From: a bacterium
Lineage (GTDB): Bacteria; Zhuqueibacterota; Zhuqueibacteria; Oceanimicrobiales; Oceanimicrobiaceae
Reading direction: 5' to 3'
DNA: 64,000 nt
NCBI GenBank assembly: GCA_046757025.1
Contig: JBHHXN010000014.1
Coordinates: 1,070 to 65,069, forward strand
The first letter of the stretch is position 1; each line of letters starts with the position of its first letter. A model generated the notes under the pieces. It worked only from the letters and a program-made list of their open reading frames with translations. It made no database searches and was not told the DNA's origin. Below, in pieces: positions 18,543-34,436 of the stretch. Position numbers and translations under genes: made by a program.

Positions 18543-20027
18543 ATGAAGGTACCTTTGCTGAAAAATGATTCCATTTTCAGAAAATTATTCCTGTTGCATT
18601 TTCTGATTGCAGTACTACCCATTGCCTTATCCTGGATTTATTTTCTATATATACGCAACAGCAAGACTCTGGGCAACGAAGAATTCATGCCTTTCGTGTA
18701 CTATGGCTTACTAATTTTGACGTTCATGCTGGCCATGATCGGGGCGTTTTATTTCAGCAAAAAATTGAGCAAGCCCATCACACAGTTCAAAAAAAGCGCG
18801 CTGGAAATCGCCCGCGGCAACTTTTCGCTGAAAGTCCGCGTTCAGTCCAAAGATGAAATTGGACGGCTTGCCATGATCTTCAACTATATGGTGGAAGAAG
18901 TCAGACGATTGAACGAAAAAAACCTTTACAAAATCATCAATGAAAAAAACAAAACCGAAACCATCCTGAAAAATATTGCCGACAGCGTCATCATCACGGA
19001 CCCGCAAAACAAAATTATTTTGATCAATTCCATCGCCAAAAAGCGATTTGGTTTGTCGGGTACGGATTTTTTAGAGCGGCCAGTTGATGAATTCATCCAC
19101 AATGAGGATCTGATCAAATTCATTCACAATATCAATGATCATACCATTGACGATACAGAAACCATTGAGATAACAGTTTACTCTCCCGGTGAGACCAAAC
19201 CGGAGATTTTGCAAGCTCGGGCCGCGCGCATCGAGGACGACAAAAAGGAGCTCATCGGTATCGCCACGATTCTCAGAGACATTACACGCGAAAAGGAAAT
19301 CGACCGTTTGAAGACCGAACTGGTTTCGTTGGTAGCACATGAGCTGCGCTCCCCGCTGACCTGCATCTCTGGGTTCAGCGAGCTTTTGTTGGATCAATCC
19401 ATCACCCACGAACAGTTGGAAGAGTATGCTTCAATCATTTTGAAGGAGTCGAACCGACTGAGTGATTTGATCAACAAATTTTTGGACATCTCCAAAATCG
19501 AAGCCGGCAAGAGCCAGTTGCGGAAGTCGCCGGTGGACATGAAGCTGCTGATTGACCGGGTGCTCGATTTCAATTCCCAGCTTTCGGAAAAGAAAAATAT
19601 TCACGTGAGTTTTGAATCGCCGTCGGAAGTGTCAACCATCTACGTCGATCGCGATATGATGGAGCAAGTGGTTTTGAATTTGTTCTCAAATGCGGTGAAG
19701 TACAGTCCGGAAAATACCGAGTTGACCATCCGCATCACGGAATTGGACGACAAACTCATCCTGGAGTTTGAGGACCGCGGCTACGGCATTTCAGAAGAAT
19801 CCTTACCCAAAATCTTCAACAAATTTTACCGCATCACGGACAACGATCAAATTCGTGATATTGCTGGATCGGGATTAGGGTTGTCGCTGGTGAAAGAAAT
19901 TGTGGAAATTCACCAGGGCAATATTCAGGTGAAAAGCAAGCTGGGTGAGGGCTCGAATTTTATCGTTACCCTGCCCAAAACGCCGGTTATGGAAGAAGAA
20001 TTGGCGCATCAGGCATTGCTAATCTGA
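18543..20027 (+). CDS. Sensor histidine kinase (TM-HAMP-PAS-HisKA-HATPase_c)
   Basis: Two TM helices. The HAMP-like region reads 'IARGNFSLKVRVQSKDEIGRLAMIFNYMVEEV'. The H-box is 'HELRSPLTCISGFSELL' and the G-boxes are 'GSGLGLSLVKEIVEIHQGNIQVKSKLGEGSNF'. Confidence 0.85.
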   Translation: MKVPLLKNDSIFRKLFLLHFLIAVLPIALSWIYFLYIRNSKTLGNEEFMPFVYYGLLILTFMLAMIGAFYFSKKLSKPITQFKKSALEIARGNFSLKVRVQSKDEIGRLAMIFNYMVEEVRRLNEKNLYKIINEKNKTETILKNIADSVIITDPQNKIILINSIAKKRFGLSGTDFLERPVDEFIHNEDLIKFIHNINDHTIDDTETIEITVYSPGETKPEILQARAARIEDDKKELIGIATILRDITREKEIDRLKTELVSLVAHELRSPLTCISGFSELLLDQSITHEQLEEYASIILKESNRLSDLINKFLDISKIEAGKSQLRKSPVDMKLLIDRVLDFNSQLSEKKNIHVSFESPSEVSTIYVDRDMMEQVVLNLFSNAVKYSPENTELTIRITELDDKLILEFEDRGYGISEESLPKIFNKFYRITDNDQIRDIAGSGLGLSLVKEIVEIHQGNIQVKSKLGEGSNFIVTLPKTPVMEEELAHQALLI

Positions 20028-20101
20028 CCATGCTCAAAAGATAAAATCGGTATATAGAAAAACCCATCGCATTAGATTTAGTAACGATGAATATTTGGTA
20101 A

Positions 20102-22030
20102 TTGAAAAGGAAACCAGAGGTGCACGACGTCAACAAATTACGAAAGACCATTTTGTTCATCGATGATGATCCGGATATGCTGGAAATAGGCGGAATGATC
20201 ATCAACAAAGAGGGGTATCATTACCTCACCGCAGGCAGCGCAGAAGAAGGTCTGGCCACCATCCAGAAGAAACGGCCGGATCTGATCATTCTCGATTACA
20301 TGATGCCGCGGATGAACGGTTATGAGTTTTTCAAGGAGCTGAAACAGAATCCAAAATACAAGGCCGTCAGTGACGTGCCGGTGATTTTGTTAACGGCGGT
20401 GTCGGAAGAAGAAATCGAGCGCAAGGAATTATTTGAGATGGGATTGAGTGCGTTTCTGCTGAAGCCATTTGGAAATCGCGAGCTGTTGAACGTCATCGAC
20501 AACGTGTTTATACTTCACCAGATGAAGTTGAAAAATAAGGAGTTGCAGCAGGAGGTTAAACGCACCGAATACAAATACCAGGATTTGATTGAAAATGCCA
20601 GTGATCTGATCTTTACCCTCGATTTACAGGCCAGGTTTATTTTTATCAACAGACGACTGCCAAACATCATCGGATTTGATCGACAGCAATGGCTGGGTAA
20701 AAAGTTTTACGATCTGATCATGGCCGATGATCGTTCAAATGCCGAACACAATTTGAGGCAAACGCTCAATGGCCGCTCGAGCATCTTTGAAGTGAGAATT
20801 TATTCGGCTAACGGTCGCACTGTGCATTTGTCTGTGAATGTCAATCCCATTTTTGAAAAAGGTCAAATCGTGGGCTGCGTAGGTATTGCCAGAAACATCA
20901 CCGAAAAAAAGCAGCTGGAGATGGAAATTCTTGACCTTAAAAATTTCAACGAAAGCATCATTCAAAGTATGGGTTCGGGTTTGATTACGCTTGATTTGAA
21001 AAACAAGATTACCTCATTCAATAGCAGTGCAGAAGACATTTTAGGGTATTCCGAAAAGGAGGTCGTGGGGAAGTCTTTGGAAGAAATTTTTTCTGAAGAT
21101 AATTGTAAACAGCTATTGCCCATTATTGAAGACCCATCTCAAGGACTCTTGAATCGGGAGATGTCGCTGACGGCCAAGGAAGGCAATACCGTTTATGTGG
21201 GATTTTCGGTGACGCCGAGGTTTGATACCTTGAAGCAGCGGGTTGGGTCCATTATTGCGTTTAAGGATATTACTCAAATCAAGGAAATGCAGGTAGAAGT
21301 ACAGAGAATGGATCGACTGGCTTCCATGGGCGTTTTGGCCTCGGGCATTGCGCATGAAATACGCAATCCGCTGGCCGGAATAAAAACCATCGCGCAGACT
21401 TTAGAGGAAGAAATTGAAATAGAAGATCCACGCCGTGAGTATTTATCGCGAATTGTCAGGCAGGTCAACCGCATGGACGATCTTCTCAAGACCTTTTTTT
21501 CGTACGCAAAGCCCCGTCAACCCAAAAGAAAATATCATCGGTTTCAAGAGATTGTCCAGGAAGTGGTAGCGTTACTCGACAACCGCATTCGCGGTCAATC
21601 GGTTGAATATTCGGAATCGTACCATGCGGATCTGCCGCTGATTTATGTGGATTTTTATCAAATTCAGCAAGTGTTGGTCAATTTATTTTTAAATGCCCTG
21701 GATGCCATGCCGAAGGGTGGTGAATTAAAATTGAATGCGCAGCCCAAAGTCACCACATTGCACAGAGTGGATCGCCGGGGTCGCGCGTTTCCGGTGCAAA
21801 ACAAAAGCGCTCTGTATACGGAGGTCACCCTGCAGGATAGCGGTGAAGGAATCAAACCCGAGCACCTGCCATCCATTTTCAATCCATTTTACACCACGAA
21901 ACCGCAGGGCGCCGGACTGGGTTTATCCATCGTGTACCGAATCATGGCAGAGCACAACGGGGACATTCAAGTAGATAGCTGTGTGAATAATGGAACCACT
22001 TTTAAACTGCTAATGCCGACGGAGGAGTAA
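20102..22030 (+). CDS. Hybrid sensor kinase: N-terminal receiver, two PAS domains, HisKA and HATPase_c (NtrB/AtoS-type H-box)
   Basis: REC signature 'ILFIDDDPDMLE...LIILDYMMPRMNGYEF'. The H-box is 'HEIRNPLAGIKTIAQTL'. The ATP lid is 'GAGLGLSIVYRIMAEHNGDIQVDS'. Confidence 0.85.
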   Translation: MKRKPEVHDVNKLRKTILFIDDDPDMLEIGGMIINKEGYHYLTAGSAEEGLATIQKKRPDLIILDYMMPRMNGYEFFKELKQNPKYKAVSDVPVILLTAVSEEEIERKELFEMGLSAFLLKPFGNRELLNVIDNVFILHQMKLKNKELQQEVKRTEYKYQDLIENASDLIFTLDLQARFIFINRRLPNIIGFDRQQWLGKKFYDLIMADDRSNAEHNLRQTLNGRSSIFEVRIYSANGRTVHLSVNVNPIFEKGQIVGCVGIARNITEKKQLEMEILDLKNFNESIIQSMGSGLITLDLKNKITSFNSSAEDILGYSEKEVVGKSLEEIFSEDNCKQLLPIIEDPSQGLLNREMSLTAKEGNTVYVGFSVTPRFDTLKQRVGSIIAFKDITQIKEMQVEVQRMDRLASMGVLASGIAHEIRNPLAGIKTIAQTLEEEIEIEDPRREYLSRIVRQVNRMDDLLKTFFSYAKPRQPKRKYHRFQEIVQEVVALLDNRIRGQSVEYSESYHADLPLIYVDFYQIQQVLVNLFLNALDAMPKGGELKLNAQPKVTTLHRVDRRGRAFPVQNKSALYTEVTLQDSGEGIKPEHLPSIFNPFYTTKPQGAGLGLSIVYRIMAEHNGDIQVDSCVNNGTTFKLLMPTEE

Positions 22031-22035
22031 AATAG

Positions 22036-23406
22036 ATGACGAAAGCCAACGTGTTAATTGTTGAAGATAATGAAGATTTGTGCCAGACTCTGGCAGATGT
22101 TCTCAGAAAAGAAGGCAAAAAAGTTCGAACGGCTTTTACCGGCGAGCATGCCATCTCGATACTTAAAAAAGACATTATCGATTTGGTGCTGCTGGATATC
22201 AAACTGCCTGATTTTAACGGCATTAAAATTCTCGAAATGGTCAAGGAAATGGATCCCGACATTTCGGTTATCATGATCACCGCTTTGACCGATGCCAAAC
22301 CGGCGGTGGACGCCATGAAAATGGGGGCGTATGATTACTTGATGAAACCATTCGAGTTAGATGAGCTGAAACTGGTGGTGGCGAAAACGCTGGAGACCCA
22401 ACACCTCAAAAGAGAGGTTTCGCGCTTGAAAATCCAGCAGGAAAATCAGTTTCCGGATAACGAGCTGTACGGCAATTCCAAATCCATGCGAGAGCTCAAA
22501 AAACTGATAAAAATTGTGGCGGCCACCCCTAAGACCTCGGTTCTCATTCAAGGCGAAAGCGGCACGGGTAAGGAATTGGTAGCCAACGCCATACACAACT
22601 GGAGCGCCCGCGCCGATAAACCGCTGATTAAAATCAATTGCAGCGCCATTCCGGAAAACTTACTGGAAAGCGAATTGTTCGGTTATGAAAAGGGCGCCTT
22701 CACCGATGCCAAATCGATGAAGAAAGGCATTTTTGAAATGGCTAACGACGGGACCATTTTCCTGGATGAAATCTCCAGCATGCAAATGTCCATTCAACCC
22801 AAATTTTTACGGGTACTGGAAACCCAGTCTTTTCGCCGAATTGGCGGCACCTCCGACATCACCATGGATGTGAGAATCATCGCCGCCACCAATCGCAACC
22901 TGGAAGATTGCGTTGAACAGCAAGCATTTCGGGAAGATTTGTACTATCGACTCAAAGTGATGGTGCTCAACATTCCGGCCTTGCGCGACAGGACCGATGA
23001 TATTTTACCGCTGGCCATGCTCTTTATTGAACGAAGCAATAAAGAGTTTGGCAAAGATGTCAAATCCATTGCCAAAGATGCCACAGAGCGCCTGCTGAAA
23101 TACCGCTGGCCGGGAAACGTTAGAGAGTTAAAAAATGTCATCGAACGAGCGGTCATTTTGTGCAACAGCGAAGAGCTGTCTTCGGAGCATCTGCCCCTGG
23201 AGCTGCAAGACGGCTATTCCAAAATTTCCACTTCCTCCCAGTTTACTTCCTTTTCCAGCGAAGGGGACTCGCTGGAAGAGATGGAACGGCAACATATTAT
23301 TAACATGTTAAAAAAATATAAAGGCAACAAATCGCAAACTGCCCGAATTTTAAACATCTCTCGTTCGACATTGCGTGAAAAAATGAAAGTGTATAAAATA
23401 GCCTGA
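22036..23406 (+). CDS. σ54-dependent transcriptional activator, NtrC family (REC + AAA+ σ54-interaction domain + Fis-type HTH)
   Basis: REC signature 'VLIVEDNEDLCQ'. Walker A 'GESGTGKELVA'. The GAFTGA motif is present as 'GAFTDA'. 'RWPGNVRELKNVIERA' is present. The C-terminal HTH reads 'KGNKSQTARILNISRSTLREKMKVY'. RBS GGAGGAG. Confidence 0.9.
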   Translation: MTKANVLIVEDNEDLCQTLADVLRKEGKKVRTAFTGEHAISILKKDIIDLVLLDIKLPDFNGIKILEMVKEMDPDISVIMITALTDAKPAVDAMKMGAYDYLMKPFELDELKLVVAKTLETQHLKREVSRLKIQQENQFPDNELYGNSKSMRELKKLIKIVAATPKTSVLIQGESGTGKELVANAIHNWSARADKPLIKINCSAIPENLLESELFGYEKGAFTDAKSMKKGIFEMANDGTIFLDEISSMQMSIQPKFLRVLETQSFRRIGGTSDITMDVRIIAATNRNLEDCVEQQAFREDLYYRLKVMVLNIPALRDRTDDILPLAMLFIERSNKEFGKDVKSIAKDATERLLKYRWPGNVRELKNVIERAVILCNSEELSSEHLPLELQDGYSKISTSSQFTSFSSEGDSLEEMERQHIINMLKKYKGNKSQTARILNISRSTLREKMKVYKIA

Positions 23407-23440
23407 CTGGCCGATTTTCGGTCAGTCAGTTCTGTATTCT
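23403..23440 (+). terminator. Hairpin after the NtrC-family gene: weak terminator or attenuator
   Basis: CTGACTGGCCG-ATTTT-CGGTCAGTCAG is an 11-bp stem with one G·U pair. It is followed by TTCTGTATTCTCTC, which is U-rich but interrupted. Confidence 0.4.
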
Positions 23441-23601
23441 CTCTACAAATCCCCTCCCAACATTCATTTTCCACTATTTATTATTCCCTGCCAGGAATTT
23501 AATTTTTCCGCTATTAAGTAAAGGTTTTGCTTTTATATGACGAATACCAATTTGAGGTTCAGGCCTATTAAACTCCGATACGGAATGGCATAAGTACTGG
23601 A

Positions 23602-23616
23602 TGGCACAGGATTTGC
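23602..23616 (+). promoter_or_regulatory. σ54 (RpoN) promoter: TGGCAC-N5-TTGC
   Basis: Exact consensus -24 GG and -12 GC elements with 5-nt spacing, 45 nt upstream of ATG 23661. It lies immediately downstream of the NtrC-family activator gene. Confidence 0.7.
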
Positions 23617-23660
23617 GAAATTTGGCTGAGGGAAAGATTTAATTGGTTGAAGGAGTTTAT

Positions 23661-24329
23661 ATGACTGCCCAAAAGAAAATATTAATTGTGGATGATGAAG
23701 AGGATATCACTTGGGGCATCTCAAAAAGTTTAGACAAGTCGTATTATGGATTAGAAGTCAATTGTGTTCATTCCGGCGATGAAGCCTTGAATTTGATGAA
23801 CTCGAAAACTTTCGATCTGGTGGTGTCTGACATTCGAATGCCCGGTCGGGACGGCATGCAATTGATTCTGGATATTCGAAAACGTTATCCACATACCAAA
23901 GTCATCATCATGACCGCCTACGGATCGCAGCAGGTGAAAGACGAGGTTACCAATCGGGGTGGGTATTTCTACATTGAAAAGCCTTTTGATGTGGGCCACC
24001 TCAAACAAATCATTTTTGATGCTCTGGAAGTGGAGGACAACGGTTTCAAGGGATTTATTGAAAACGCCGGCGTTCGGGAATTGGTTGAGTACAACTGCAT
24101 CAGAAAACGCAATACTATGCTGGAAATTAATCAGGATCAACAGAAGGGGATGATTTATTTTCGAAATGGGGATGTGGTGCATGCTGAATGCGGCGAGCTG
24201 AAGGGAGAACACGCCTTGTTCAATATTCTGAATTGGCAGACCGGCACCTTTAAAATTAACCCTTGTAACTGGAATGTAAATAGAACCATCGCAAGAGACT
24301 GGAAATCCATTTTACATCATTGTATTTAA
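23661..24329 (+). CDS. Response regulator receiver domain fused to a C-terminal DUF4388/PATAN-like domain
   Basis: REC signature 'ILIVDDEEDI...LVVSDIRMPGRDGMQL...KVIIMTAYG'. The C-terminal 'GMIYFRNGDVVHAECGELKGEHALFNILNWQTGTFKI' fits the DUF4388 pattern. RBS AAGGAG 8 nt upstream. Confidence 0.7.
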   Translation: MTAQKKILIVDDEEDITWGISKSLDKSYYGLEVNCVHSGDEALNLMNSKTFDLVVSDIRMPGRDGMQLILDIRKRYPHTKVIIMTAYGSQQVKDEVTNRGGYFYIEKPFDVGHLKQIIFDALEVEDNGFKGFIENAGVRELVEYNCIRKRNTMLEINQDQQKGMIYFRNGDVVHAECGELKGEHALFNILNWQTGTFKINPCNWNVNRTIARDWKSILHHCI

Positions 24330-24360
24330 GAAATTCGTTTGAATTAATGAGGATTTGCTA

Positions 24361-25182
24361 ATGGGTGAAATAATAGCCATATCCAGCCAGAAAGGCGGCG
24401 TCGGAAAAACCACCACTGCCGTGAATTTGAGCGCCAGTTTGGTTACCCTCGGTCATCGCGTGCTTTTGATCGATATCGACCCGCAAGGTAGCATCGCCTT
24501 GACTTTTGGCTATGGTCGATATGATATCAAAGCGGGTATTCTGGATGTTTTCACCCGGAATTTACCCATGAGCCAGGCCGTACATGAAACGGGGATGCCA
24601 AATTTTGATTTTATCCCCACTAACCTCTGGTCAGATGAAAACGATAAACGCAAACTTATTGGTGTGGCTGGCAAAATAAAATTGAAAGAGGCCATCGCTC
24701 CCATCATGGACTTGTACGATTTCATCATTATCGATTGTCCGCCGTCATTGGGTAATCTCACTTTCAATGCGCTGGTGGCGGCCAACTCACTCATTGTCCC
24801 GATTCAATGTGAATATTATGCCTTAAAATCGCTGGGCCGATTTCTTAAGCTGACGCGGGTTATTAAAAATGACAGCAATCCGGATTTGAAATACCGGGGC
24901 TTTCTTTTAACCATGGTAGATCAGAGAAACAATCTTTCGAAAATTGTGATCGAAAAGATTCGATACACGCTTCAGGGGCTGGTGTTCGATACCATGATTC
25001 CGCGCAATGTGCGGCTGGCGGAAGTACCATACTACGGTAAACCGGTGATCAAAATCGATAAAAATTGTAAAGGCGCTACCAGTTACCTCAATTTAGCCAA
25101 AGAGTTGTTAGGTCAATTTCACACGGTGACCAAAGTTGAAAATGAGAAGGAAAAGAAAACAGAATTGGTGGAAGCAGCTTAA
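24361..25182 (+). CDS. ParA/Soj-family P-loop ATPase (deviant Walker A)
   Basis: 'IIAISSQKGGVGKTTTAVNLSASL' and 'LLIDIDPQGS' are ParA/Soj-type, not MinD-type. Confidence 0.85.
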   Translation: MGEIIAISSQKGGVGKTTTAVNLSASLVTLGHRVLLIDIDPQGSIALTFGYGRYDIKAGILDVFTRNLPMSQAVHETGMPNFDFIPTNLWSDENDKRKLIGVAGKIKLKEAIAPIMDLYDFIIIDCPPSLGNLTFNALVAANSLIVPIQCEYYALKSLGRFLKLTRVIKNDSNPDLKYRGFLLTMVDQRNNLSKIVIEKIRYTLQGLVFDTMIPRNVRLAEVPYYGKPVIKIDKNCKGATSYLNLAKELLGQFHTVTKVENEKEKKTELVEAA

Positions 25183-25251
25183 AATGAGATGACGAAATTT
25201 TTAACGGTGGAACAATTTATGTGAACAATTGATTGGAGGAGGTGGCCTATT

Positions 25252-25956
25252 TTGAATTCAACAACACTCATTCGATGGCTTAACAACGGGCTGTTTGTAG
25301 GATTGATGGCGCTGATGTTCATTTCCATGATCAATTTTTCTTCAAACGCCTTGACCACGGTGCAAGAAGAAGAAAGAATCACCGAATTGCGTACGTTTGT
25401 GCCGGAGATTCACGGCGTTTTGCACGCCAATCAAATGCGTTTGAAAAAGGTCACTGAAATTTATCAAATCATGAACAAATACAATCGCAATTTGCAACAG
25501 CCACAAAAATACGACATCGCCAACGAAATATACGAAATGAGTTTGAAATACCAGAATCTCGATGTGCTTTTGATATGCGCAACCATCACACACGAAAGTG
25601 CGCGTACCTGGCGCCGGGACGTCAAATCCCCGGCCGGCGCGCTGGGGTTGATGCAGATCATGCCGTATACCGGCCAGGTGTTAAGTAAGCTGGAAGGCAT
25701 TCCCTGGACCACGCCGGAAGAGGTTCTGTATAATCCCGTTTATAATATTCGGCTGGGATGTCGTTACCTTTCCTCTTTGATCGAAATGTACAATTTGGAT
25801 GGGGGGCTGGCTGCTTACAATGGCGGAGAAAAGCGCGCAGCAAAATGGCTGGCAAGCGGCCGCGATGATGAAATCCTGTATGAAGAAACCCGACTGTACA
25901 TTCCTGCCGTGTTGAAACTGTACGATGTATTCCGGAATAAAACCCTTTCACTTTAA
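25252..25956 (+). CDS. Membrane-anchored lytic transglycosylase (SLT domain)
   Basis: N-terminal TM helix. SLT motifs 'THESARTW' (catalytic Glu-Ser), 'GALGLMQIMPYTG' and 'AYNGG' are present. TTG start with a GGAGGAGG RBS. Confidence 0.75.
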   Translation: MNSTTLIRWLNNGLFVGLMALMFISMINFSSNALTTVQEEERITELRTFVPEIHGVLHANQMRLKKVTEIYQIMNKYNRNLQQPQKYDIANEIYEMSLKYQNLDVLLICATITHESARTWRRDVKSPAGALGLMQIMPYTGQVLSKLEGIPWTTPEEVLYNPVYNIRLGCRYLSSLIEMYNLDGGLAAYNGGEKRAAKWLASGRDDEILYEETRLYIPAVLKLYDVFRNKTLSL

Positions 25957-25974
25957 TTTAGATGCAATATTATT

Positions 25975-27903
25975 ATGCAAAGTGTTCAAAATATATTATC
26001 CGATACCGAGTTCAATCATGAATTAATCAATCGATTTTTTCATACGAACAGTTATTTTTATCGATGCCTTGAAAAAATAATTCAGCAACGAAAAAATAAC
26101 CGCAATCCTTCGAGCAAGCTGTTTAAAGAGCTTTTGGATAAATTGGTCGATTCGGATGATAAATTGGAAATGATTTCCTCCCTCTCGAAGATTGCGGGAT
26201 TTGACCAATTTGTCGAGAAATTAAATCAAGGGATAGGCTTGCTTCGGGATTCGGATCTGGATCTGGAACAGATGAAAATTGAAATCGAGAAACTGGCGCA
26301 AAATTTATTTAAGTGTGCCGACAAGGCGTTCGAAAACACGCAGGCAATAACTGCGGTGGAAGAAATGTTGAGCATTTCAAAATCGGACATTGAAATGATT
26401 CAATATCGGGAGTCAAGCTATCCAGAAAAGAATGGACCGGACGTTTTAACCATCGATGAAAGTCAAAAGATAGAAGAGACCGTTGTATTCACAGAGTCGC
26501 CTTCTCATGAGCCTGGTACAGCCAAACCTGAACTAAATCTGGATTCTTACGAAGACACTCCAGTGCAAAAATCGGAAGAAAAGGATGTCACTTTTAATCA
26601 AAAAGATGGCACGGAAGCCATTGATGAAGGTGGATGCGAGTTCAGAATAGATGAAGAAGGCGACTCTGTGAGTACAACTTTTTCCCATAGAGCTCTTTCG
26701 CAACCCATCAACAGTGAGCCAGAGAGCGTGGTCACGGTTTTTCAAAAAGAGACCCAAAATCAAATCGAGCAAATTCAACAAACGATTGACTCGTTAAAGA
26801 CCGACTTGAAAAATGCCAAGCAGTGGCGTGGTTGTGAGGACATATTCGAAAAGATGGCTGCCAACGCCATGGTTTACGGTTTTGATGCGTTTGAACAAAT
26901 TGCTGCCAAAGCCAATGTGTTGGTGAAAGTGGCTCTGATTAAGCTGGATATTTTACCGGCGACGATTCTGGATTTGCTCTCAGAAATAAAGGACGTTTTA
27001 CAATCTATTCTCAACAGCGATGTGGATCGAATAGAAAAAAAACAGGTAGATAGGCTTTTGCATAAATTGCAAAATCCAAAAAAATATTTTGAAAATGTCA
27101 GCCTGAATCCGGAAGAAAATCTTAACAAATACATAAAAAAAAACTCTCGAGAAACTACGCTAACTGAGGGTGCCGCTGAAAACGGTGACTCAGTAGCCTT
27201 GGATGAAGTTCAAACCCCTATCGATAACGAAAATTCAGAGCGTACGCCGGTAAATTTCACATTACCAGGCGAAGATGACGAAGAAATCCTCAGTCTGGTT
27301 TCTGAAATTTCAAACCACTACGATGTGGGAAATAATTGTCAAACCCAAGCTGTCCAGTCGGACACAGTAACAGCCTCAGAATTCAACCTAAAAAAAAAGC
27401 CGTTAAAAATAAACGAAGTTGAATCCGCCAAAAACGGAGTCACTGTTGTCGCGGATCAGCAGCTCTGTCTATTCAAGCAGCAAGCAGAATTTTATTATTC
27501 CGTAATTGAGGAAGCGTTAACTAAACTTCAAAGCACGCCAAATGACCAAAACGCACTGGAAGACCTGGAGCTGGCGTCAAATTCACTTTATGGTCTGACA
27601 CTGAAGCTGAAATTAGAACCCCTGAGTAAATTTCCGGCTGGCATCGAAGAGCTCATCGGTAACGTCCTAACCACCAATGCCAGTCTTACCACGGATGATT
27701 ACCGACTGATCCGGGAAGTTTATGCGAATTTTAAAGAATTTACCTGTCTGGAAGATTCGGAATCTCGTCATTGTAAAGAGCTCATAAGTTCTGTAAACCG
27801 ACTCAACTCAGCTATAAGCACGCGAGCGATGACAAAAAACAAGCAAGAAAATATTTTTAAAATCACCAGAAACGATATGGAAGGAAATTTACTGATTGTG
27901 TAA
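25975..27903 (+). CDS. Acidic 642-aa hypothetical protein with three degenerate HPt/CheA-P1-like helix-hairpin repeats and long low-complexity acidic linkers. Candidate scaffold.
   Basis: Repeats at 'LSKIAGFDQFVEKLNQGIGLL', 'FEKMAANAMVYGFDAFEQIAAKANVLVKV' and 'LELASNSLYGLTLKLKLEPL'. The regions between them are rich in E/D/S/T. Confidence 0.6.
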   Translation: MQSVQNILSDTEFNHELINRFFHTNSYFYRCLEKIIQQRKNNRNPSSKLFKELLDKLVDSDDKLEMISSLSKIAGFDQFVEKLNQGIGLLRDSDLDLEQMKIEIEKLAQNLFKCADKAFENTQAITAVEEMLSISKSDIEMIQYRESSYPEKNGPDVLTIDESQKIEETVVFTESPSHEPGTAKPELNLDSYEDTPVQKSEEKDVTFNQKDGTEAIDEGGCEFRIDEEGDSVSTTFSHRALSQPINSEPESVVTVFQKETQNQIEQIQQTIDSLKTDLKNAKQWRGCEDIFEKMAANAMVYGFDAFEQIAAKANVLVKVALIKLDILPATILDLLSEIKDVLQSILNSDVDRIEKKQVDRLLHKLQNPKKYFENVSLNPEENLNKYIKKNSRETTLTEGAAENGDSVALDEVQTPIDNENSERTPVNFTLPGEDDEEILSLVSEISNHYDVGNNCQTQAVQSDTVTASEFNLKKKPLKINEVESAKNGVTVVADQQLCLFKQQAEFYYSVIEEALTKLQSTPNDQNALEDLELASNSLYGLTLKLKLEPLSKFPAGIEELIGNVLTTNASLTTDDYRLIREVYANFKEFTCLEDSESRHCKELISSVNRLNSAISTRAMTKNKQENIFKITRNDMEGNLLIV

Positions 27904-27980
27904 AATGGTTTCCTCTGGAAAGTTTGTTTGAGTTTTTAATTTATTTGAGATTTCGATTACAAAAATAGGTTGATAAGAAG

Positions 27981-29675
27981 ATGGCTGCTCATAACGTTGA
28001 AATAGACCAACAATTGGAAGACGTGTTAAAATCGCACAAGACAAAAATTCGCATCGTCGGCATCGGTGGTGGGGGTAATAATACCGTTACCCGTTTGCTG
28101 GAAGTGGGGATCAAAGGCGTAGAGGTGATTGCGGTGAACACCGATGCCCAGGATTTGCTGTTCGCCAAAGCCGATCACAAAATATTGATCGGCAAGAACG
28201 TCACCAGCGGTTTAGGTGCGGGTAGCGATCCGGTGAAAGGGGCGGAGTCCGCACAGGAGAGCCTCAAAGAAATTGAGGGTTTGCTGAATGACAGCGACAT
28301 GGTGTTCGTGACCTGCGGGCTGGGTGGAGGGACTGGCACTGGCGCTTCACCGGTGCTTGCGGAAGTGGCCAAAATGAACGGTGCTTTGACTATCGCTATT
28401 GTCACCCTGCCGTTTGGCGATGAGGGCATCGTCCGTTGGGAAAACGCGCAGAGGGGGTTAGAACAATTGCAGCAAAAAGTGGATACCGTGATCGTGGTGC
28501 AAAATGATCGGCTGTTGGATTTGGTGCCGGATATGTCGCTGAACGCCGCTTTCAAAGTTGCTGATGAAATTTTGGTGAACGCGGTCAAAGGCATCACTGA
28601 GCTGGTGACTGAAAAAGGGCTGGTTAATCTCGATTTTGCCGACGTAAAAACCATTATGAAGAACGGCGGCCTGGCCATGATCGGGCTGGGTGAAAGCGAC
28701 CACGAAAACAACGCAGAGGAAGCGGCTCAAAAAGCGCTCAAGAATCCCCTTCTGGATGTGGAGATCACCGGTGCTAAAAACGCGTTGATCAACATCACCG
28801 GCGGACAGGAGCTGTCGCTAAAATCCTCAAAAACAATCATGAAAATCATTTCCGAACGACTGGATCCTTCAGCAAAAATTATCTGGGGCGCCCGTCTGGA
28901 TGAATCCATGGGGCAATCACTTCGCGTGATGCTGATCGTGACCTGTTTGCAATCGAAGCGCCGATCGGCATCCGAAATCGATATGGTAATTCGGCAAACC
29001 GGTCGCAGTGTCTTGCTGCCCATTCAAAAAGAACAAAAAGAGGTGGAAGTGGTAAAGGTTGAGGATGCGGAGCCGTCGGAACAAGTCGAGGCGTCCACAG
29101 GCCCTCAAAAACATCAAGCGAAGCAAGTTTTCTCTGAAATTTTTTTGGAAGATTGTGAAGCAGACATAACTCGGCTGAGGGATGCTGTGAAAGGTTTGGC
29201 AGTCGGTGAAAATTCGCTGAATGAGAAATATTTGCGGGAAATCAAAAGCGCCTGCACCTCATTGTACAACACCGCTGAATTGTTTTCGTATCCGATAATT
29301 TCGGAATTTGCAGAAGTAGCGGGAGAAGTTACGGACAAGGCGTTATCGAGGGAGTTCGATCTGACTGAAAATTTGATTACCATTTATCAGAATATGCCTG
29401 CGGTTTTAGATGGTTTGCTAAAGAAAAAGGAGCACAGCCGGGAGTATGCCGAAGAGATAAAAATACAGTTTACAAATATATTGAAGCTGTTTGAGCAATC
29501 AGAAGGAGGAAATGAGAGGGAATTCGTCGAATCCGAAGTACCTAAAAACGATAATCAAAATAAGCTGGATATATCGGAAGCGGCCGAAATCACTGAGCAA
29601 AAGAAGGATGGGGAGAAAAAACCGGAATTTTCAAATGTCAGAGATGCCGTAAAATACATTGATAAACTGCTATAA
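27981..29675 (+). CDS. FtsZ-family tubulin-like GTPase with a ~230-aa C-terminal extension carrying an HPt-like motif
   Basis: 'IRIVGIGGGGNNTV', 'NTDAQDL', 'CGLGGGTGTGASPVLAEVAK' and a T7-loop 'NLDFADVKTIM' are present. The C-terminal extension contains 'IKSACTSLYNTAELFSYPIISEFAEVAGEV'. The gene is not in a recognisable dcw context. Confidence 0.85.
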   Translation: MAAHNVEIDQQLEDVLKSHKTKIRIVGIGGGGNNTVTRLLEVGIKGVEVIAVNTDAQDLLFAKADHKILIGKNVTSGLGAGSDPVKGAESAQESLKEIEGLLNDSDMVFVTCGLGGGTGTGASPVLAEVAKMNGALTIAIVTLPFGDEGIVRWENAQRGLEQLQQKVDTVIVVQNDRLLDLVPDMSLNAAFKVADEILVNAVKGITELVTEKGLVNLDFADVKTIMKNGGLAMIGLGESDHENNAEEAAQKALKNPLLDVEITGAKNALINITGGQELSLKSSKTIMKIISERLDPSAKIIWGARLDESMGQSLRVMLIVTCLQSKRRSASEIDMVIRQTGRSVLLPIQKEQKEVEVVKVEDAEPSEQVEASTGPQKHQAKQVFSEIFLEDCEADITRLRDAVKGLAVGENSLNEKYLREIKSACTSLYNTAELFSYPIISEFAEVAGEVTDKALSREFDLTENLITIYQNMPAVLDGLLKKKEHSREYAEEIKIQFTNILKLFEQSEGGNEREFVESEVPKNDNQNKLDISEAAEITEQKKDGEKKPEFSNVRDAVKYIDKLL

Positions 29676-29692
29676 TCATTTTCAAAAGAAAC

Positions 29693-30364
29693 GTGTTTTC
29701 AGCGATCAACATCAAAGAAGTCGACATCACGGAAACAACCTCCAGCTTTCGGCTGCCTCACAAAAAACCGTTGCATCAATATTATCTCCATGAGATTTTA
29801 GCCGGTCTTAAGAAAATTGAACACGTCATGTCCATATCTGAGGCCGAAGTAAGCAATCATCACAAATTAATTGCTATCTCAAAAATCGCGCAGTCCATAT
29901 CTGAGTTGGCGATGATTCATGGATTTGATGGGGTGGAAAAAATTGGCCACAAACTGTTTTCCACTCTTAGCGTTTTACGCGACTCGGGGGGAGAATTCGA
30001 TGAGACTCTGCGTGAGAAAGTAAATCTGGCTGTTTATGTGATACGCCAGGTGGCCACAATGGAAGCTCACATCGAGCGCCAAATGAACGTGGAGCGAATT
30101 GACCAGACGGTAGAACGTGATCAGGAAAAAGTACAGCGATGTGCTGAGAAGTTTTCTGAATCCATCGAACAGTTAATTCATAAACAGATGAAATTACCGT
30201 TCAAGGAAAAATACGATATCAACAAAAATGAGAATCAAAAATTATTGTTCGATATCAGAGAAATGGACTCCATCCTGAACATACCCAAAAAAATAACCCT
30301 CCAACAAGATCGCAATGGTACTTTGGAATTATTCCTACCAGATGATCTATCTCCCGATGAATGA
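29693..30364 (+). CDS. 223-aa hypothetical protein with a pseudo-HPt (CheA-P1-like) domain, Gln at the phospho-His position
   Basis: 'LIAISKIAQSISELAMIHGFDGVEKIGHKLFSTLSVLRDSG' aligns without gaps to CheA P1 'LNAIFRAAHSIKGGAGTFGFSVLQETTHLMENLLDEARRG' with ~12 of 41 identities. GTG start. Confidence 0.55.
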   Translation: MFSAINIKEVDITETTSSFRLPHKKPLHQYYLHEILAGLKKIEHVMSISEAEVSNHHKLIAISKIAQSISELAMIHGFDGVEKIGHKLFSTLSVLRDSGGEFDETLREKVNLAVYVIRQVATMEAHIERQMNVERIDQTVERDQEKVQRCAEKFSESIEQLIHKQMKLPFKEKYDINKNENQKLLFDIREMDSILNIPKKITLQQDRNGTLELFLPDDLSPDE

Positions 30365-30528
30365 AATTTTAACGGGCACTATGTTGAACGTAGTTGCGTA
30401 TCCTTTTCAGCGACTGTGTTGTTTTACGGGATTTACTGGATGCACGAGATGGAATTGTTCATCCATTAAATCACCATTAATTGAACCAAAATAGCCCTGC
30501 CCCGGTTTTACTACAACTCCCCATTATG

Positions 30529-30614
30529 TCACGCTGAGAAGTCCTTCGACATGCTCAGAGCCTGCCCTGAGCCTGGTGAAGGGATAAACTTCTCGGCGAA
30601 GAATCTCATACTAC
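30529..30614. repeat. Partial copy of a dispersed MITE/REP-like composite repeat (GC hairpin + 'GCGAAGAATCTCATACTAC' block)
   Basis: It shares the 'CGAAGAATCTCATACTAC' block with 48721-48739 and 47511-47520, and related GC-rich hairpin sequence with 48684-48720 and 50755-50830. Confidence 0.45.
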
Positions 30615-30778
30615 CCAATTTGCTAAAATGTAAAAATGGTGAATTCGTGCAGAGGGTTCGCGCTCCCGCAACGCGGAATCGCTCAAAATGACATTGTGGG
30701 AAGATGGCTGAGTTAAATGGATGACCGTATCGCGGCGATCTTAAAAGTCTAATAGTGCGATTCCTTATTATCATGGCA

Positions 30779-30859
30779 GTCATTGCGAGGAGTGTAACGA
30801 CGAAGCAATCTCCTGATATTCAGCAAGTTAGGAGATGGCTTCGCTGCGCTCGCAATGAC
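30779..30859. repeat. 81-bp palindromic element built from two inverted copies of the 'GATTsTTCGTCGyTACrCTCCTC' unit
   Basis: GTCATTGCGAGG...CGAAGCAATCTCCT | AGGAGATGGCTTCG...TCGCAATGAC. The same unit is found at 47562-47586 and 48777-48801. Confidence 0.5.
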
Positions 30860-31148
30860 AATTTGTTGTAACATTAATTAGGAAATGTTCTACTAATAAC
30901 CCGGGCAATGGTCATTCCCGCTTAACCTATCTTCCGGCAAGCCGGGTTATGGAATCCCAACTGTGCAATATGCCGATTCAATCAGTGTCCGATTTCATCC
31001 ACGACAAATTGAAAAATCAAACCATACTTTTTCAAATCAAAGAAAAACGCTCCGCTGAACCGGGTGTTAGGATTTGGTGAATAAAAATCTGTTGATAATA
31101 ATTGTGATATTTCTTAAAATCCAAAAACGAAATAATTTGGAGTAAGAG

Positions 31149-32615
31149 ATGAACGAAAAAATAATTGGCGAATCTTATACATTCGATGATGTGCTGTTGT
31201 TACCGGCCTATTCTGAGATTTTACCAAAGGAAACCGATACCCGATGCTGGCTTACAAAAAATATTCAGCTTAACGTGCCTTTGGTAGCGGCGGCTATGGA
31301 TACGGTGACCGAGTCTGAGCTGGCCATTGCCTTGGCGCGGGAGGGCGGAATCGGCATCATTCATAAGAATATGTCTATTGAAAAACAAGCCGAAGAAGTC
31401 GATCGGGTGAAACGTTCTGAAAGCGGCATGATTTACGATCCCATTACATTGACGGCGGATCGCCGCATTGCAGAAGCATTGGAGTTAATGCATCGGTTCA
31501 AAATATCCGGCATCCCCATCGTCGAAGGGAAAAAATTAGTGGGGATTTTAACCAATCGCGATTTACGATTTGAAGATAATATCGAGCTGGAAATCACGCA
31601 GGTCATGACCAAGGATAATTTGGTGACCGCCCCTGTGGGCACCACTCTGGAACAAGCCGAAAAAATTCTTCAGCAGAACCGCATCGAAAAATTACCGGTG
31701 GTGGACGAACATGGCCATCTACAGGGATTGATAACGGTAAAGGATATTCAGAAAAAGCGCAAATTTCCACTGGCGACGAAAGACAGCCAGGGCCGTTTGC
31801 GGGTTGGAGGGGCCATCGGTATTACGGGGAATTTGCTGGAACGGGCACAAGCGCTGATTCAGGCGCAGGTGGATGTGCTGGTGGTCGATTCCGCACACGG
31901 GCATTCAAAAGGCGTGATTGAAACGGTGAAATTATTGCGTAACACTTTTCGTGACATGGATATCATCGCTGGAAATGTGGCCACGGCGGCCGGTGCTCAG
32001 GATTTGATCAAAGCCGGCGCCGACGCCGTGAAAGTGGGGATGGGCCCAGGCACGATTTGTACCACGCGTGTCGTGGCGGGCGTCGGCATGCCGCAAATTT
32101 CCGCTTTAATGAATTGCGCCGAAATATGCAAAAAAAATCGCGTGCAGTTAATATCTGATGGCGGCATTAAGCAAACCGGCGATTTAGCTAAGGCCGTCGC
32201 CGCCGGCGCCGATTCCATCATGATTGGCAGCCTGTTTGCCGGAACAGAAGAAAGCCCGGGGGATAAAGTTTATATGGGGGGGAGGATATTTAAAGTTTAC
32301 CGCGGCATGGGATCCATTTCTGCCATGCAGCAAGGCAGCGGCGATCGCTATTTTCAAGGCGATGAAACGCAACTGACGAAATTGGTGGCCGAAGGCATCG
32401 AAGGTCGCGTGCCGTATCGCGGAAAATTGAGCGAAGTGGTTTATCAAATGGTGGGCGGTCTGCGAGCGGCCATGGGCTACTGCGGCGCCCGAACTATTTT
32501 CGAGTTGCAGTCTAAAAGTCGTTTTGTGAAAATTAGTGCGGCAGGTTTGATGGAGAGCCATCCTCATGATGTGGTTATCACCGAGGAGGCGCCGAATTAT
32601 AAAGTCTTAAAATAA
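31149..32615 (+). CDS. guaB: IMP dehydrogenase
   Basis: '[13 protein letters not shown]', a tandem CBS pair and the catalytic 'GIGPGSICTTR'-type loop ('[17 protein letters not shown]') are present. Also '[12 protein letters not shown]'. Confidence 0.9.
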
Positions 32616-32719
32616 AAAAAGAAACCGGGTTAGCTTGTCATAACCGGGATTAGGGGGAGTTACCGGTATTGACGCGCTTTCCCGGTTTCATCTTTTCAAA
32701 AAAACCGAAATTTTAAACG

Positions 32720-32971
32720 CTACAACTTATTGATGTAAAGCGTTAATTGTGATTTTTGATTGGCGGCTTTATTCCTGTGAATTATTTTTTTCGAAGCTAA
32801 TTTATCTAATAATGAAACGGTTTCGCGATATAATAGTTCAGCGGTTTCTTTATCTTCAGTAGCAAGAACTTTGCTAATGGCGGTTTTCATCTTCGATTTG
32901 TAATGTTTGTTACGCTCTCTGGATTTTTGACTTCGTCTAATTCTTCTAATTGCTGAGGGATAGTTTGCCAT
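32720..32971 (-). CDS. rpsT: 30S ribosomal protein S20
   Basis: 83 aa basic protein. 'MANYPSAIRRIRRSQKSRERNKHYKSKMKTAIS' has the typical S20 N-terminus. Confidence 0.85.
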   Translation of the reverse strand: MANYPSAIRRIRRSQKSRERNKHYKSKMKTAISKVLATEDKETAELLYRETVSLLDKLASKKIIHRNKAANQKSQLTLYINKL

Positions 32972-33229
32972 TTTTTTAAATTGTTCTCCTACTGTTAGGT
33001 AATATTAATTTGAAACAAATATACAAAAATATATATCTTTTGTCAATAAAAAAATAGTTTAAGGCTGAGCTATTAACTATATAATACGAGAACTTAGGTT
33101 GAATATTGCTCAAACTTTTTCTTGACTTTTAGTCTCTATTATCTTATTATACAAGCAATTTTATTTCTAAAAAAATTTTGAATGTACAGCACTTTTTCTC
33201 GCTTTTGTTGACACATTTTAGGAGGGCGT

Positions 33230-33568
33230 ATGAAAATAAAACAAAGAAAAATTGGGGATGTGGTTATTTTAGATCTGAGCGGCAAGCTGCTTGGCGGTCC
33301 ACCGGTCTTTGAGGAATTTACCGAGACCATTCATACCCTCAACGACGAGGGCATCAAAAAAGTGGTGGTCAATCTCAACGAGGTGACCCGAATGAACAGC
33401 TCAGGATTGGGTATTTTAATCTCAGCTTTGACCTCGTTGAGTAAAGTCGACGGTCAGCTCAAATTAGCGGGCATCAATGAGACCATGGAAGGTATTTTGA
33501 TCACGACCAAACTTAATACCATTTTCGAAACCTTTGATACAGCAGAAGGGGCCGCACAAAGTTTTTAA
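33230..33568 (+). CDS. STAS-domain anti-sigma-factor antagonist (SpoIIAA-like)
   Basis: 112 aa. 'VVILDLSGKL', 'VVVNLNEVTRMNSSGLGILISA' and 'LKLAGINETM' follow the STAS pattern with a phosphorylatable Ser. Confidence 0.75.
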   Translation: MKIKQRKIGDVVILDLSGKLLGGPPVFEEFTETIHTLNDEGIKKVVVNLNEVTRMNSSGLGILISALTSLSKVDGQLKLAGINETMEGILITTKLNTIFETFDTAEGAAQSF

Positions 33569-33623
33569 TTTGAAACAGATTGTCGTTCGCCGCTAAATGT
33601 TCCATTCAGTTTGTTTGACTTCA

Positions 33624-33650
33624 GGGAGCTCCAGGAGCTCTCTTTTTTTG
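33624..33650 (+). terminator. Intrinsic terminator after the STAS gene
   Basis: GGGAGCT-CCAGG-AGCTCTC hairpin followed by T7. Confidence 0.45.
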
Positions 33651-34436
33651 ATTAATTCAATCCTTTTGACTCTAAAAGTTAACAAGCAATTTGGAACAAG
33701 GAGCATTTCCGGAGTAGGTCTAAAGTAAAGTTAATCTTTTTAACGGTTCGCTGAATTTGACCGGGATTTAAATTACCCATTGAATATTTATGAAAAATAG
33801 GAATGCCCAGTTGAAAAATATAGCGTTCGACTCAGCTAAGGCTGAAGCATATTTTTTTTTTGATGCGCCCCGAAGTAAATTCGGGAAACCATGAGAACTT
33901 TTTAATAATCAATCAAAACAGATTTTCAATAGCGCATTCGTACTACGAGTCGTTGATGATAGATTGAGCGTGAGCAAGCGAGAAAAGTGCCACACTAAGT
34001 ACTCCATATCAGAAATGGTTGCAGGGTTCACAAGAGGTAATAGCGGCTACCGATCTTCACCCTTCTACTCCGCTCAGAGTGAAGATCATGGTTTTCAGAA
34101 TTTGAATTGGGACTCAGCATGAAGATAGGTACCCGACAGTCCATTTTGAAATGGAATACTTAGCTCAAATACGAATCGCTTTCAAATTGAACAAATTAAT
34201 TTGTCATTGATTTTGACAAAGGGATTACTTGTTTTATTGTGCTGCTACCTGATATTTCCTTCGTGAGTTTTCATTTTTTTAATCAAGTTAGTCTAATAAA
34301 TTTCGCTTTTGATGGAGCTAAAACGAAAAAATAAACCACATTCGTTTTTCATACCATTTATATTTTAAAATGTTGTTTGAGGATGAGCTGATAATCTTAA
34401 TGCAATTTATTAATTGAAAGTAAATGGAGGATAAAA

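Follow-up and report, generated by a model that had tools for sequence, protein, structure and literature searches.

An archaeal-type FtsZ with a phospho-dead, CheA-P1-like tail domain in a conserved and putatively sigma-54-driven operon of an uncultured bacterium

Two modes of FtsZ regulation are known: small partner proteins bind its short C-terminal peptide, and Min, MipZ, or Pom gradients act on it. Here, we analyze a putative six-gene operon in a 64-kb stretch of contig JBHHXN010000014.1 (64,000 nucleotides, below called the window), in which an FtsZ, here termed FtsZ-P1, is encoded together with a receiver (REC)–PATAN protein, a ParA-type ATPase, an SLT-family lytic transglycosylase, and two proteins outside any Pfam family (Table 1). 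The GTPase core of FtsZ-P1 is of archaeal sequence type, and its tail holds a pseudo-Hpt domain, similar to the P1 domain of CheA, that is shared with operon neighbors.

The nearest described GTPase core is that of archaeal FtsZ1 from M. jannaschii (PDB 1FSZ/1W58), which has the same VTCGLGGGTGTG signature. Unlike archaeal FtsZ1, the operon FtsZ is found in a diderm bacterium, lacks a GID motif, carries a 230-amino acid (aa) P1-like tail, and has bacterial-type signaling and wall genes as operon partners. Bacterial FtsZ of the dcw cluster belongs to the same family, and FtsZ-P1 has all of its GTP-binding and T7-loop residues; the operon copy, in contrast, lies outside dcw, has no PxFLR peptide for binding FtsA/ZipA, and is of archaeal type. 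FtsZm of magnetotactic bacteria is a precedent for an additional FtsZ in a specialized operon. Encoded in mamXY and involved in magnetosome biogenesis, FtsZm is a recent duplicate of the host’s own FtsZ and has no C-terminal tail, whereas the operon FtsZ is archaeal-type, is extended by a signaling-type domain, and has REC, SLT, and ParA proteins as partners.

ParA/MinD-type positioning of FtsZ is known from MipZ in Caulobacter, PomXYZ in Myxococcus, and MinCDE, and the scaffolds PomX and PomY are long, partly disordered proteins with coiled coils. The present operon resembles these systems in genetically tying a deviant-Walker-A ATPase to FtsZ and in encoding long, partly disordered scaffolds. 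It differs from them in that its ATPase is similar to Soj and chromosomal ParA, is co-operonic with ftsZ, and is missing in two lineages, and in that its scaffolds are built of pseudo-P1 repeats rather than coiled coils.

The tail domain itself compares best with the P1/Hpt domains of CheA-type kinases, which serve PATAN-REC regulators in cyanobacterial phototaxis. In P. aeruginosa ChpA, His-less “Xpt” variants carry a non-His residue at the phospho-site. The five-helix fold and the profile match are common to CheA P1/Hpt domains and the domain described here, and the non-His phospho-site is shared with ChpA; in contrast to CheA, there is no P3–P5 kinase module, and a cytoskeletal GTPase carries the domain at its tail or scaffold proteins contain repeats of it. 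The remaining likeness is to Anabaena PatA, also composed of PATAN and REC, which binds ZipN and SepF and acts on the FtsZ ring via these divisome contacts, its loss enhancing FtsZ rings (PMC7380572). The operon protein has the reversed order, REC then PATAN, and is encoded with ftsZ, and three loci have REC only. A full-text literature search found no match to the architecture, in line with the earlier note on this DNA, which had not recognized it as a described system; the search likewise found nothing on FtsZ in KSB1 or Caldithrix, on FtsZ–Hpt fusions, or on FtsZ with DUF4388. The module stands apart from the known systems in its archaeal core, its repeated phospho-dead P1 domain, its obligatory SLT enzyme, and its dedicated circuit of kinases, activator, and sigma-54 promoter.

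We compared FtsZ-P1 with both bacterial and archaeal FtsZ. The protein clears the 295.2-bit cutoff of the TIGR00065 ftsZ model with 411.6 bits and matches Tubulin (E 4e-46) and FtsZ_C (E 4e-31). GLGGGTGTG and the T7 loop NLDFADV are invariant in 24 aligned family members, and the GTPase core is intact. By family score, then, the protein is the bona fide FtsZ-family member that the earlier note had called it; what the note missed is that the core is of archaeal, not bacterial, sequence type. Against all PDB chains, the core (aa 1–328) scored 390 bits with M. jannaschii FtsZ1, compared with 290 bits for the best bacterial FtsZ and about 245–250 bits for FtsZ of E. coli, P. aeruginosa, and T. maritima. 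In its nucleotide-binding loop, FtsZ-P1 has the archaeal sequence VTCGLGGGTGTG in place of AGMGGGTGTG, and four of six diagnostic columns are archaeal.

Most top matches among 5.8 billion proteins were FtsZ proteins with the same tail (99–100% query coverage, 56–63% identity), and those with a name were labeled KSB1, Calditrichaeota, Bacteroidetes, or plain “bacterium.” An exhaustive HMMER search of 1.84 billion cluster representatives returned ∼13 family representatives with the operon-type tail, and the next-best matches had the archaeal LGI(D/E)F sequence at their C terminus; named clusters among these archaeal-type matches were Thermoplasmatota and Freyarchaeota. A scan of genome contigs with query-specific peptides of the FtsZ protein returned no KSB1 genome and four unrelated FtsZ loci, three of them archaeal (also used as references) and one from Dehalococcoidia, with identities to the operon FtsZ of 57% (Woesearchaeota), 52% (Halobacteriales), and 44% (Dehalococcoidia). 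Each family member scored 44–66 bits higher on an archaeal-type hidden Markov model (HMM) than on a bacterial-type one.

We then built a neighbor-joining tree from 89 cores (17 of the family, 16 with an archaeal-type C terminus, and 56 with the bacterial PxFLR peptide), with sequences picked by similarity to the query and classes set by C-terminal motif. Of 200 bootstraps, 197 separated family plus archaeal cores from bacterial cores, 161 had a monophyletic family, and only 1 had an archaeal set that excluded the family. In published FtsZ trees, the archaeal and bacterial proteins form clearly distinct groups (PMC8178401), which makes an archaeal-type FtsZ in a bacterial lineage unusual. The simplest reading of these sequence comparisons, by a simple method and with the direction of transfer inferred, would be an ancient transfer of FtsZ from archaea to bacteria. 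As a side observation, three archaeal-type FtsZ proteins in our set that end in LGI(D/E)F (P0133, P0136, and P0137) have N-terminal extensions of roughly 230–515 aa before the core; P0136 is encoded on an NCBI contig of 132 kb, and one P0133 cluster member on a contig of 233 kb.

The C-terminal tail sets the family apart from both groups. Alignment of orthologues gives FtsZ-P1 a layout of core, variable linker, conserved ∼125-aa block, acidic linker, and conserved terminal peptide. The block, marked by the motif VFSEIFxEE...IKNACxSLxNSAELF..., matched CheA P1 domains when its profile was run against the PDB (E 2e-9 to 2e-7). With a permissive threshold of E <= 1, Pfam Hpt (PF01627) matched 16 of 21 members (best 4.5e-7); the window’s own tail domain scored 13.9 bits, under the 24.6 cutoff. 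An AlphaFold2 (AF2) model of the tail domain is a five-helix bundle (pLDDT 91) with CheA P1 1i5n as its best fold match (TM score 0.78–0.84, root-mean-square deviation 2.4–2.9 Å), followed by 2lp4 and 3kyi. In CheA P1, the phospho-accepting His is carried by helices A and B. Conservation is concentrated in these two helices: of 14 columns conserved at 80% or more, 12 lie there. The column equivalent to CheA His48 contains T, E, N, Q, L, Y, S, M, A, or R, and H in none of 18 copies; in the FtsZ tail of the window, it is Thr. By sequence, the shared domain is thus a pseudo-Hpt without the phospho-accepting His.

Neither of the described partner-binding peptides is present. The bacterial (D/E)-(I/V)-P-x-F-L-(R/K) pattern, whose peptide binds FtsA, ZipA, or SepF, matched 0 family representatives, compared with 55 bacterial-type representatives. 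The archaeal GID-type motif, which binds SepF (PMC8178401), is also absent from the family, whereas LGI[DE]F is present in neighboring archaeal-type representatives. FtsZ-P1 ends instead in FSNVRDAVKYIDKLL, an amphipathic peptide with a hydrophobic moment of 0.66.

The pseudo-P1 domain recurs in the protein encoded directly before ftsZ. The earlier note had described this 642-aa product as an acidic repeat protein; its linkers are indeed acidic, and they are disordered, but the protein is a string of CheA-P1-like helical bundles. The FtsZ-tail HMM hit aa 255–367 and 500–616 with 26–27 bits each, and orthologues were hit at the same two places. In the AF2 model, three helical bundles (aa 10–131, 252–373, and 491–630; pLDDT about 90) have CheA P1 as their best fold match. 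The 642-aa protein thus contains two HMM-supported pseudo-P1 copies and probably a third. Its family comprises only 16 homologue clusters among 5.8 billion proteins, all “hypothetical,” and 8 of the 16 lie on contigs equal in size to FtsZ-match contigs; the scaffold family is confined to these operons.

The 223-aa protein encoded after ftsZ probably carries one pseudo-P1 domain as well, judging from sequence matches. Its positional orthologues match the tail HMM (E 1e-9 to 5e-3, Z=4000), and the window’s protein aligns in register with them, with Gln at the His position and AMIHGF(D/E)GVE shared with the first-domain subtype. Of the earlier note’s “two uncharacterised proteins,” it remains true that neither has a Pfam family, but the 642-aa protein, and probably the 223-aa one, is built from the domain of the FtsZ tail. 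Because the pseudo-P1 domain is common to the FtsZ tail, the 642-aa protein, and probably the 223-aa protein, receiver-to-pseudo-Hpt docking is the likely control link.

Two further features of the 642-aa gene were observed. Within the disordered, fast-evolving linker 2 (27262–27315, aa 430–447), a near-invariant LPGEDDEEIxxLVxEIS segment is the only predicted helix; it looks like a short linear binding motif, for which ParA, the FtsZ core, and PATAN are candidate partners. Acidic linker 1 contains an inverted repeat of 24 nt (26482–26505/26655–26678, 23/24 complementary, 149-nt spacer), where none is expected by chance. For RNA spanning 26470–26690, the folding energy is −79.8 kcal/mol (z = −7.2) and the closing stem is ∼27 bp long, and the repeat at 26482–26678 could be an mRNA processing/RNase III site or a small inverted-repeat element inserted in the linker.

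Table 1. Features of the operon and of the signaling block upstream of it (window coordinates)
Feature	Position	Strand	Evidence or remark
REC-GGDEF response regulator (diguanylate cyclase)	17507-18529	+	Pfam Response_reg and GGDEF
HAMP-PAS-HisKA-HATPase sensor histidine kinase	18543-20027	+	Pfam
Hybrid REC-PAS-PAS-HisKA-HATPase histidine kinase	20102-22030	+	Pfam
NtrC-type sigma-54 enhancer-binding protein	22036-23406	+	Sigma54_activat E 2e-69, Response_reg, HTH_8
Intrinsic terminator-like hairpin	23403-23429	+	12-bp stem, 7 G-C pairs, T-rich tail
Sigma-54 -24/-12 element TGGCACAGGATTTGC (TGGCACAGGATTTGCG to 23617)	23602-23616	+	TGGCAC-N5-TTGC
Receiver plus DUF4388/PATAN (PatA_N)	23643/23661-24329	+	Response_reg E 5e-26, 91.6 bits; DUF4388 44 bits, cutoff 25
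Soj/ParA-type deviant-Walker-A ATPase, orphan	24355-25182	+	AAA_31 E 1e-49; KGGVGKTT
SLT-family lytic transglycosylase, membrane-anchored or exported	25252-25956	+	SLT E 3e-18; N-terminal hydrophobic segment
642-aa scaffold protein	25975-27903	+	No Pfam family; FtsZ-tail HMM, AF2 model
FtsZ-P1, 564 aa	27981-29675	+	Tubulin and FtsZ_C; TIGR00065 411.6 bits
FtsZ GTPase core, archaeal FtsZ1-like	27981-28970	+	aa 1-330
Pseudo-Hpt domain, CheA-P1-like five-helix bundle	29118-29504	+	aa ~380-508
C-terminal amphipathic peptide FSNVRDAVKYIDKLL	29628-29672	+	xSNVxxAVKY(F/I)xKL(F/L) conserved across orthologues
223-aa helical protein	29693-30364	+	No Pfam family; probable pseudo-P1 at aa ~28-150

The six co-directional open reading frames reported earlier on the + strand (23661–30364) were confirmed, as was their tight spacing, with intergenic gaps of 17–77 bp (18–77 bp in the earlier note). 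ATG 23661, preceded by GGAG at 5–6 nt, is the most probable start codon of the first gene, rather than TTG 23643. To assess conservation, we read the gene neighborhoods of 11 family members, covering up to 10 kb on each side of the relatives’ FtsZ gene; besides the window, these are 10 loci from about nine lineages of related metagenome bacteria. The gene set is a conserved unit, with its order recurring in the 10 further loci at FtsZ identities of 47–67%. The neighbors, which the earlier note had considered might prove unconserved across relatives, are thus kept in about nine lineages. The SLT gene and FtsZ were called in every locus with upstream DNA covered (L018–L020 have too little upstream), and the receiver gene was found in every such locus bar L002. 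The helical protein before ftsZ (467–764 aa across loci; absent in L005) and the one after it (179–491 aa) are usual components.

Other parts vary. REC-PATAN is encoded in six loci, L016 has a truncated REC, and L003, L013, L014, L017, and L021 carry a stand-alone REC as a separate gene. Soj-type ParA is encoded in most loci and absent in two lineages (L005/L006 and L007/L008). With ParA missing in two lineages and PATAN in three loci, the parts list is therefore flexible. Downstream of the operon, most lineages have guaB and rpsT, an arrangement that speaks for its vertical inheritance in KSB1/Calditrichota-group bacteria.

Several observations on individual loci are recorded here. The stand-alone receiver lies between ParA and SLT (L003 6659–7063, L014 6407–6820, L017 7082–7477, L021 6334–6729, and L013 3961–4344) and is of another receiver type than the REC of REC-PATAN; the window does not have it, and its ParA–SLT gap is only 69 bp. 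The most divergent lineage, L002 (a 1.27-Mb JGI contig), has the operon without the REC-PATAN gene and without an adjacent activator, and two larger REC/PatA_N genes are found ∼8 kb downstream, past guaB and rpsT (19642–21707). A 406-aa protein, P0085, considered as a short canonical FtsZ paralogue, was rejected as a truncated or mis-assembled copy of the operon gene: its tail breaks off after KVFSEIF, and its 5-kb contig has a scrambled order. Between the last operon gene and guaB, the window has a 785-bp gene-free gap (30365–31148), compared with ∼130–340 bp in related loci, counted either side of the extra gene that some loci carry. No Rfam family and no terminator-like site was found in this gap; near 30779–30860, it contains an inverted repeat, GTCATTGCGAGGAG...CTCGCAATGAC, spotted by eye.

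The products of the first three genes are of recognizable type. In the REC-PATAN protein (23661–24329), where REC precedes PATAN, the receiver keeps the phospho-acceptor residues DD, D (SDIRMPG), T, and K, and these are conserved in orthologues. The closest solved relative of the ATPase is 8RAY (216 bits), identified as M. xanthus chromosomal ParA (PMC12462528), followed by Soj (188 bits), with MinD at <= 64 bits. The ATPase reaches none of the NCBIfam cutoffs for ParA, RepA, and MinD (ParA_partition 103.7 bits vs. 180), and no ParB gene was found in the window region or in the relatives’ loci. An identity as MinD or MipZ was dropped, with minD_bact at 81 bits against a cutoff of 213 and the MipZ Pfam match spanning only profile positions 2–151 of 262. 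By sequence relationship, the ATPase is an orphan Soj-type protein. The SLT domain (PF01464) scores 66 bits against a cutoff of 21.3, and HESA (with the catalytic Glu-Ser), GLMQI, and AYNGG are visible.

A signaling block precedes the operon. It opens with the REC-GGDEF gene, which takes the same position in L005, L017, and L021. The HAMP-PAS sensor kinase is kept upstream in L003, L005, L007, L008, L014, L015, and L017, and in the same loci, the hybrid kinase lies directly before the activator gene. Kinase, hybrid kinase, and NtrC-type activator precede the operon wherever upstream DNA is covered (not L002, L013, and L016). The hairpin at 23403–23429 closes this regulator operon and separates the activator gene from the promoter element. 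In the activator, the sigma-54 contact loop (aa 218–225) reads GAFTDA where the canonical form is GAFTGA, as in all seven activator orthologues read (GSFTDA in one).

The consensus sigma-54 promoter element noted earlier was confirmed in the sequence: it has GG at −24 and GC at −12 with the exact spacing, lies beside an enhancer-binding-protein gene, and is conserved in orthologous loci. TGGCAC-N5-TTGC has its sole exact match on both strands of the 64-kb window here (∼0.1 expected from a simple calculation), 196 bp past the stop of the activator gene. If transcription starts ∼12 nt after the GC, the predicted leader to ATG 23661 is ∼34 nt. In 9 of 11 loci, TGGYAY-N5-T[TG]GC is found 55–66 nt before the first start codon, and in L002, it is found 161 nt before it; the L015 element, TGGCACAGGGTTTGT, has one mismatch in the −12 part. 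Among 546 kb of strand searched, this pattern occurs 16 times, 10 of them at the operon promoter position. A KEGG Orthology (KO) table lists rpoN in 41 of 44 KSB1 genomes (PMC9012183, suppl. 7).

The host looks like an uncultured KSB1/Calditrichota-type bacterium of the Fibrobacteres-Chlorobi-Bacteroidetes superphylum group, judging from an EF-G nearest to KSB1 (77%) and Calditrichaeota (75%) sequences. It is diderm, with TonB receptors, SurA, an SLT enzyme, and sigma-54. The remaining window is ordinary chromosomal housekeeping DNA (guaB, fusA, pyrD, purB, purC, TonB receptors, and others), and an Rfam scan of 22000–34000 matched no family. Because housekeeping genes flank the operon in stable synteny, a phage or plasmid origin was dropped.

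Taking these data together, we favor a reading in which two-component-gated assembly of FtsZ-P1 is coupled to the SLT enzyme and often to ParA, under particular conditions and beside an ordinary FtsA/FtsZ divisome. We assign this reading a probability of roughly 0.5. The kinases would sense a signal and phosphorylate the NtrC-type activator, which would open the sigma-54 promoter, and FtsZ-P1 would polymerize. The pseudo-P1 domains of the FtsZ tail and the scaffolds may then dock receiver domains, using an Hpt:REC interface without phosphotransfer, so that the phosphorylation state of REC(-PATAN) would determine how FtsZ-P1 assembles, bundles, or attaches to the membrane. The amphipathic helix at the C terminus would anchor the polymer, either at the membrane or on a partner; ParA, where present, would give nucleoid-based positioning; and the membrane-anchored SLT would cut glycan strands at the site. 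The outcome would be a division-like or wall-remodeling apparatus that is deployed conditionally. A single transcript, inducibility, positioning, and wall cleavage, all suggested earlier, are things we infer here as well, and ParA-driven positioning of FtsZ, which the earlier note had suggested, is not part of an invariant core, the ParA gene being missing from L005/L006 and L007/L008.

The strongest competitor is that FtsZ-P1 is simply the housekeeping division FtsZ, an archaeal type having displaced or out-competed the bacterial one, with pseudo-P1 proteins replacing the FtsA/ZipA tethers and sigma-54 as just one among several inputs. The intact GTPase motifs and the score above the NCBIfam ftsZ equivalog cutoff would fit, as would a locus in stable synteny with guaB, rpsT, and fusA across lineages. 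Mur/fts (dcw) genes were found neither in the 64-kb window nor within 10 kb of the operon at 13 loci with several kilobases of flank (L001–L008, L014–L017, and L021), and a second copy is therefore not directly verified. Copy numbers, in contrast, speak against this explanation. In the KO table for 44 KSB1 genomes, 29 by one count, or 27 by the row as printed (clade I, 5/6; clade II, 8/11; clade III, 2/12; and clade IV, 12/15), have two K03531 (ftsZ) entries, GCA_013359425.1 and GCA_003576975.1 among them; nearly all of the listed genomes have ftsA, ftsQ, ftsW, and ftsI, which are mostly single-copy (PMC9012183, suppl. 7). The mostly single ftsZ of clade III favors the housekeeping explanation, but these are metagenome-assembled genomes of at least 50% completeness (PMC9012183), and single counts are therefore partly missing data. 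The published Zhuqueibacterota supplements contain no ftsZ entry.

The C terminus bears on the same question. FtsA normally needs the PxFLR peptide of FtsZ, and this peptide is missing from the operon FtsZ. Given the two ftsZ genes plus ftsA/Q/W/I of the KO table and the missing PxFLR here, the operon FtsZ is probably an extra copy beside a canonical dcw FtsZ. The earlier note had allowed that it might be the sole, canonical division FtsZ; canonical it is not, lying outside any dcw cluster and lacking the peptide. A strictly activator-dependent sigma-54 promoter with input from two kinases would also be an odd drive for an essential gene, and we consider the housekeeping explanation unlikely.

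Somewhat less likely again is a checkpoint on the ordinary divisome rather than a separate machine. FtsZ-P1 would co-polymerize with or poison canonical FtsZ, REC-PATAN would play the part of PatA in Anabaena, and a given signal would stop division or shift it to another place. The PatA precedent, the heavy signaling input (two kinases, an NtrC-type activator, and a GGDEF protein), and pseudo-P1 proteins without an enzymatic domain are what such a device might look like. A pure inhibitor, however, is hard to square with an SLT gene in every locus with upstream DNA covered, which favors wall cutting. An archaeal-type core only ∼45–50% identical to bacterial FtsZ is a poor candidate for co-polymerization, and the GTPase and T7 residues are fully conserved.

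It is more doubtful still that the FtsZ polymer and SLT build some other structure of the envelope; candidates would be a septum like that of a cyst or spore, a site of budding, an intracellular compartment, or a large trans-envelope complex. Parallels would be FtsZm and the transglycosylases dedicated to flagella and secretion systems. Specialized second FtsZ paralogues are known, and genes for development or appendages are commonly under the control of sigma-54 and an NtrC-type activator. The best NCBIfam match of the SLT protein is a flagellar-assembly lytic transglycosylase family, far below its cutoff. Against such a structure, no appendage or compartment structural genes lie in or beside the operon at any locus, and the flanks are housekeeping genes. 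Finally, a chance juxtaposition with a fortuitous TGGCAC-N5-TTGC match, with which the chance-level frequency of one-mismatch versions in the window (5 found, 5.5 expected) would agree, is already refuted by the conservation data, because gene order and promoter position recur in about nine lineages at FtsZ identities down to 47%, and three gene products share one rare domain.

Several points also weigh against conditional, two-component-gated assembly of FtsZ-P1. ParA is missing in two lineages and the PATAN domain in three loci, where the REC part alone is kept. No shared activator binding site, whether as k-mer or as palindrome, was found upstream of the promoters. The window’s 223-aa protein on its own does not match the tail HMM significantly, and the tree was made by neighbor joining only, with the sampling and class definitions given above. 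The second, dcw-type ftsZ is drawn from other KSB1 genomes, none linked to the operon loci, and two NCBI KSB1 assemblies that do match such loci are absent from the KO table. For 10 of the 12 genomes of clade III, this table lists one untyped ftsZ (PMC9012183, suppl. 7). The proposed docking of REC to pseudo-P1 is by analogy with Hpt:REC complexes, and the function of the module in its uncultured host is read from genes and domains.

Conditional assembly of FtsZ-P1 nevertheless remains our preferred reading, and a more specific version of it can be put forward tentatively: a bacterial lineage of phylum level may have domesticated an archaeal FtsZ as a second polymer and wired two-component signaling into it via phospho-dead P1 docking, with the phosphorylation of REC(-PATAN) deciding the time and place of polymer assembly and of wall cutting by the SLT enzyme. 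That the REC-to-pseudo-Hpt link represents a new principle of regulation is a realistic possibility. The module’s proteins are soluble and small, which makes direct biochemistry feasible even though the host is uncultured. What the locus already presents is a bacterial group that keeps an archaeal-type FtsZ in which the partner-binding peptide is swapped for a signaling-type domain shared with its operon neighbors. If the interpretation is true, it would mean a long-kept, cross-domain transfer of a core cytoskeletal gene, and the Hpt:receiver interface would have been put to new use on a polymer, for docking alone. Diderm bacteria would then have a second, conditional FtsZ machine, and with it, a new principle of FtsZ regulation.

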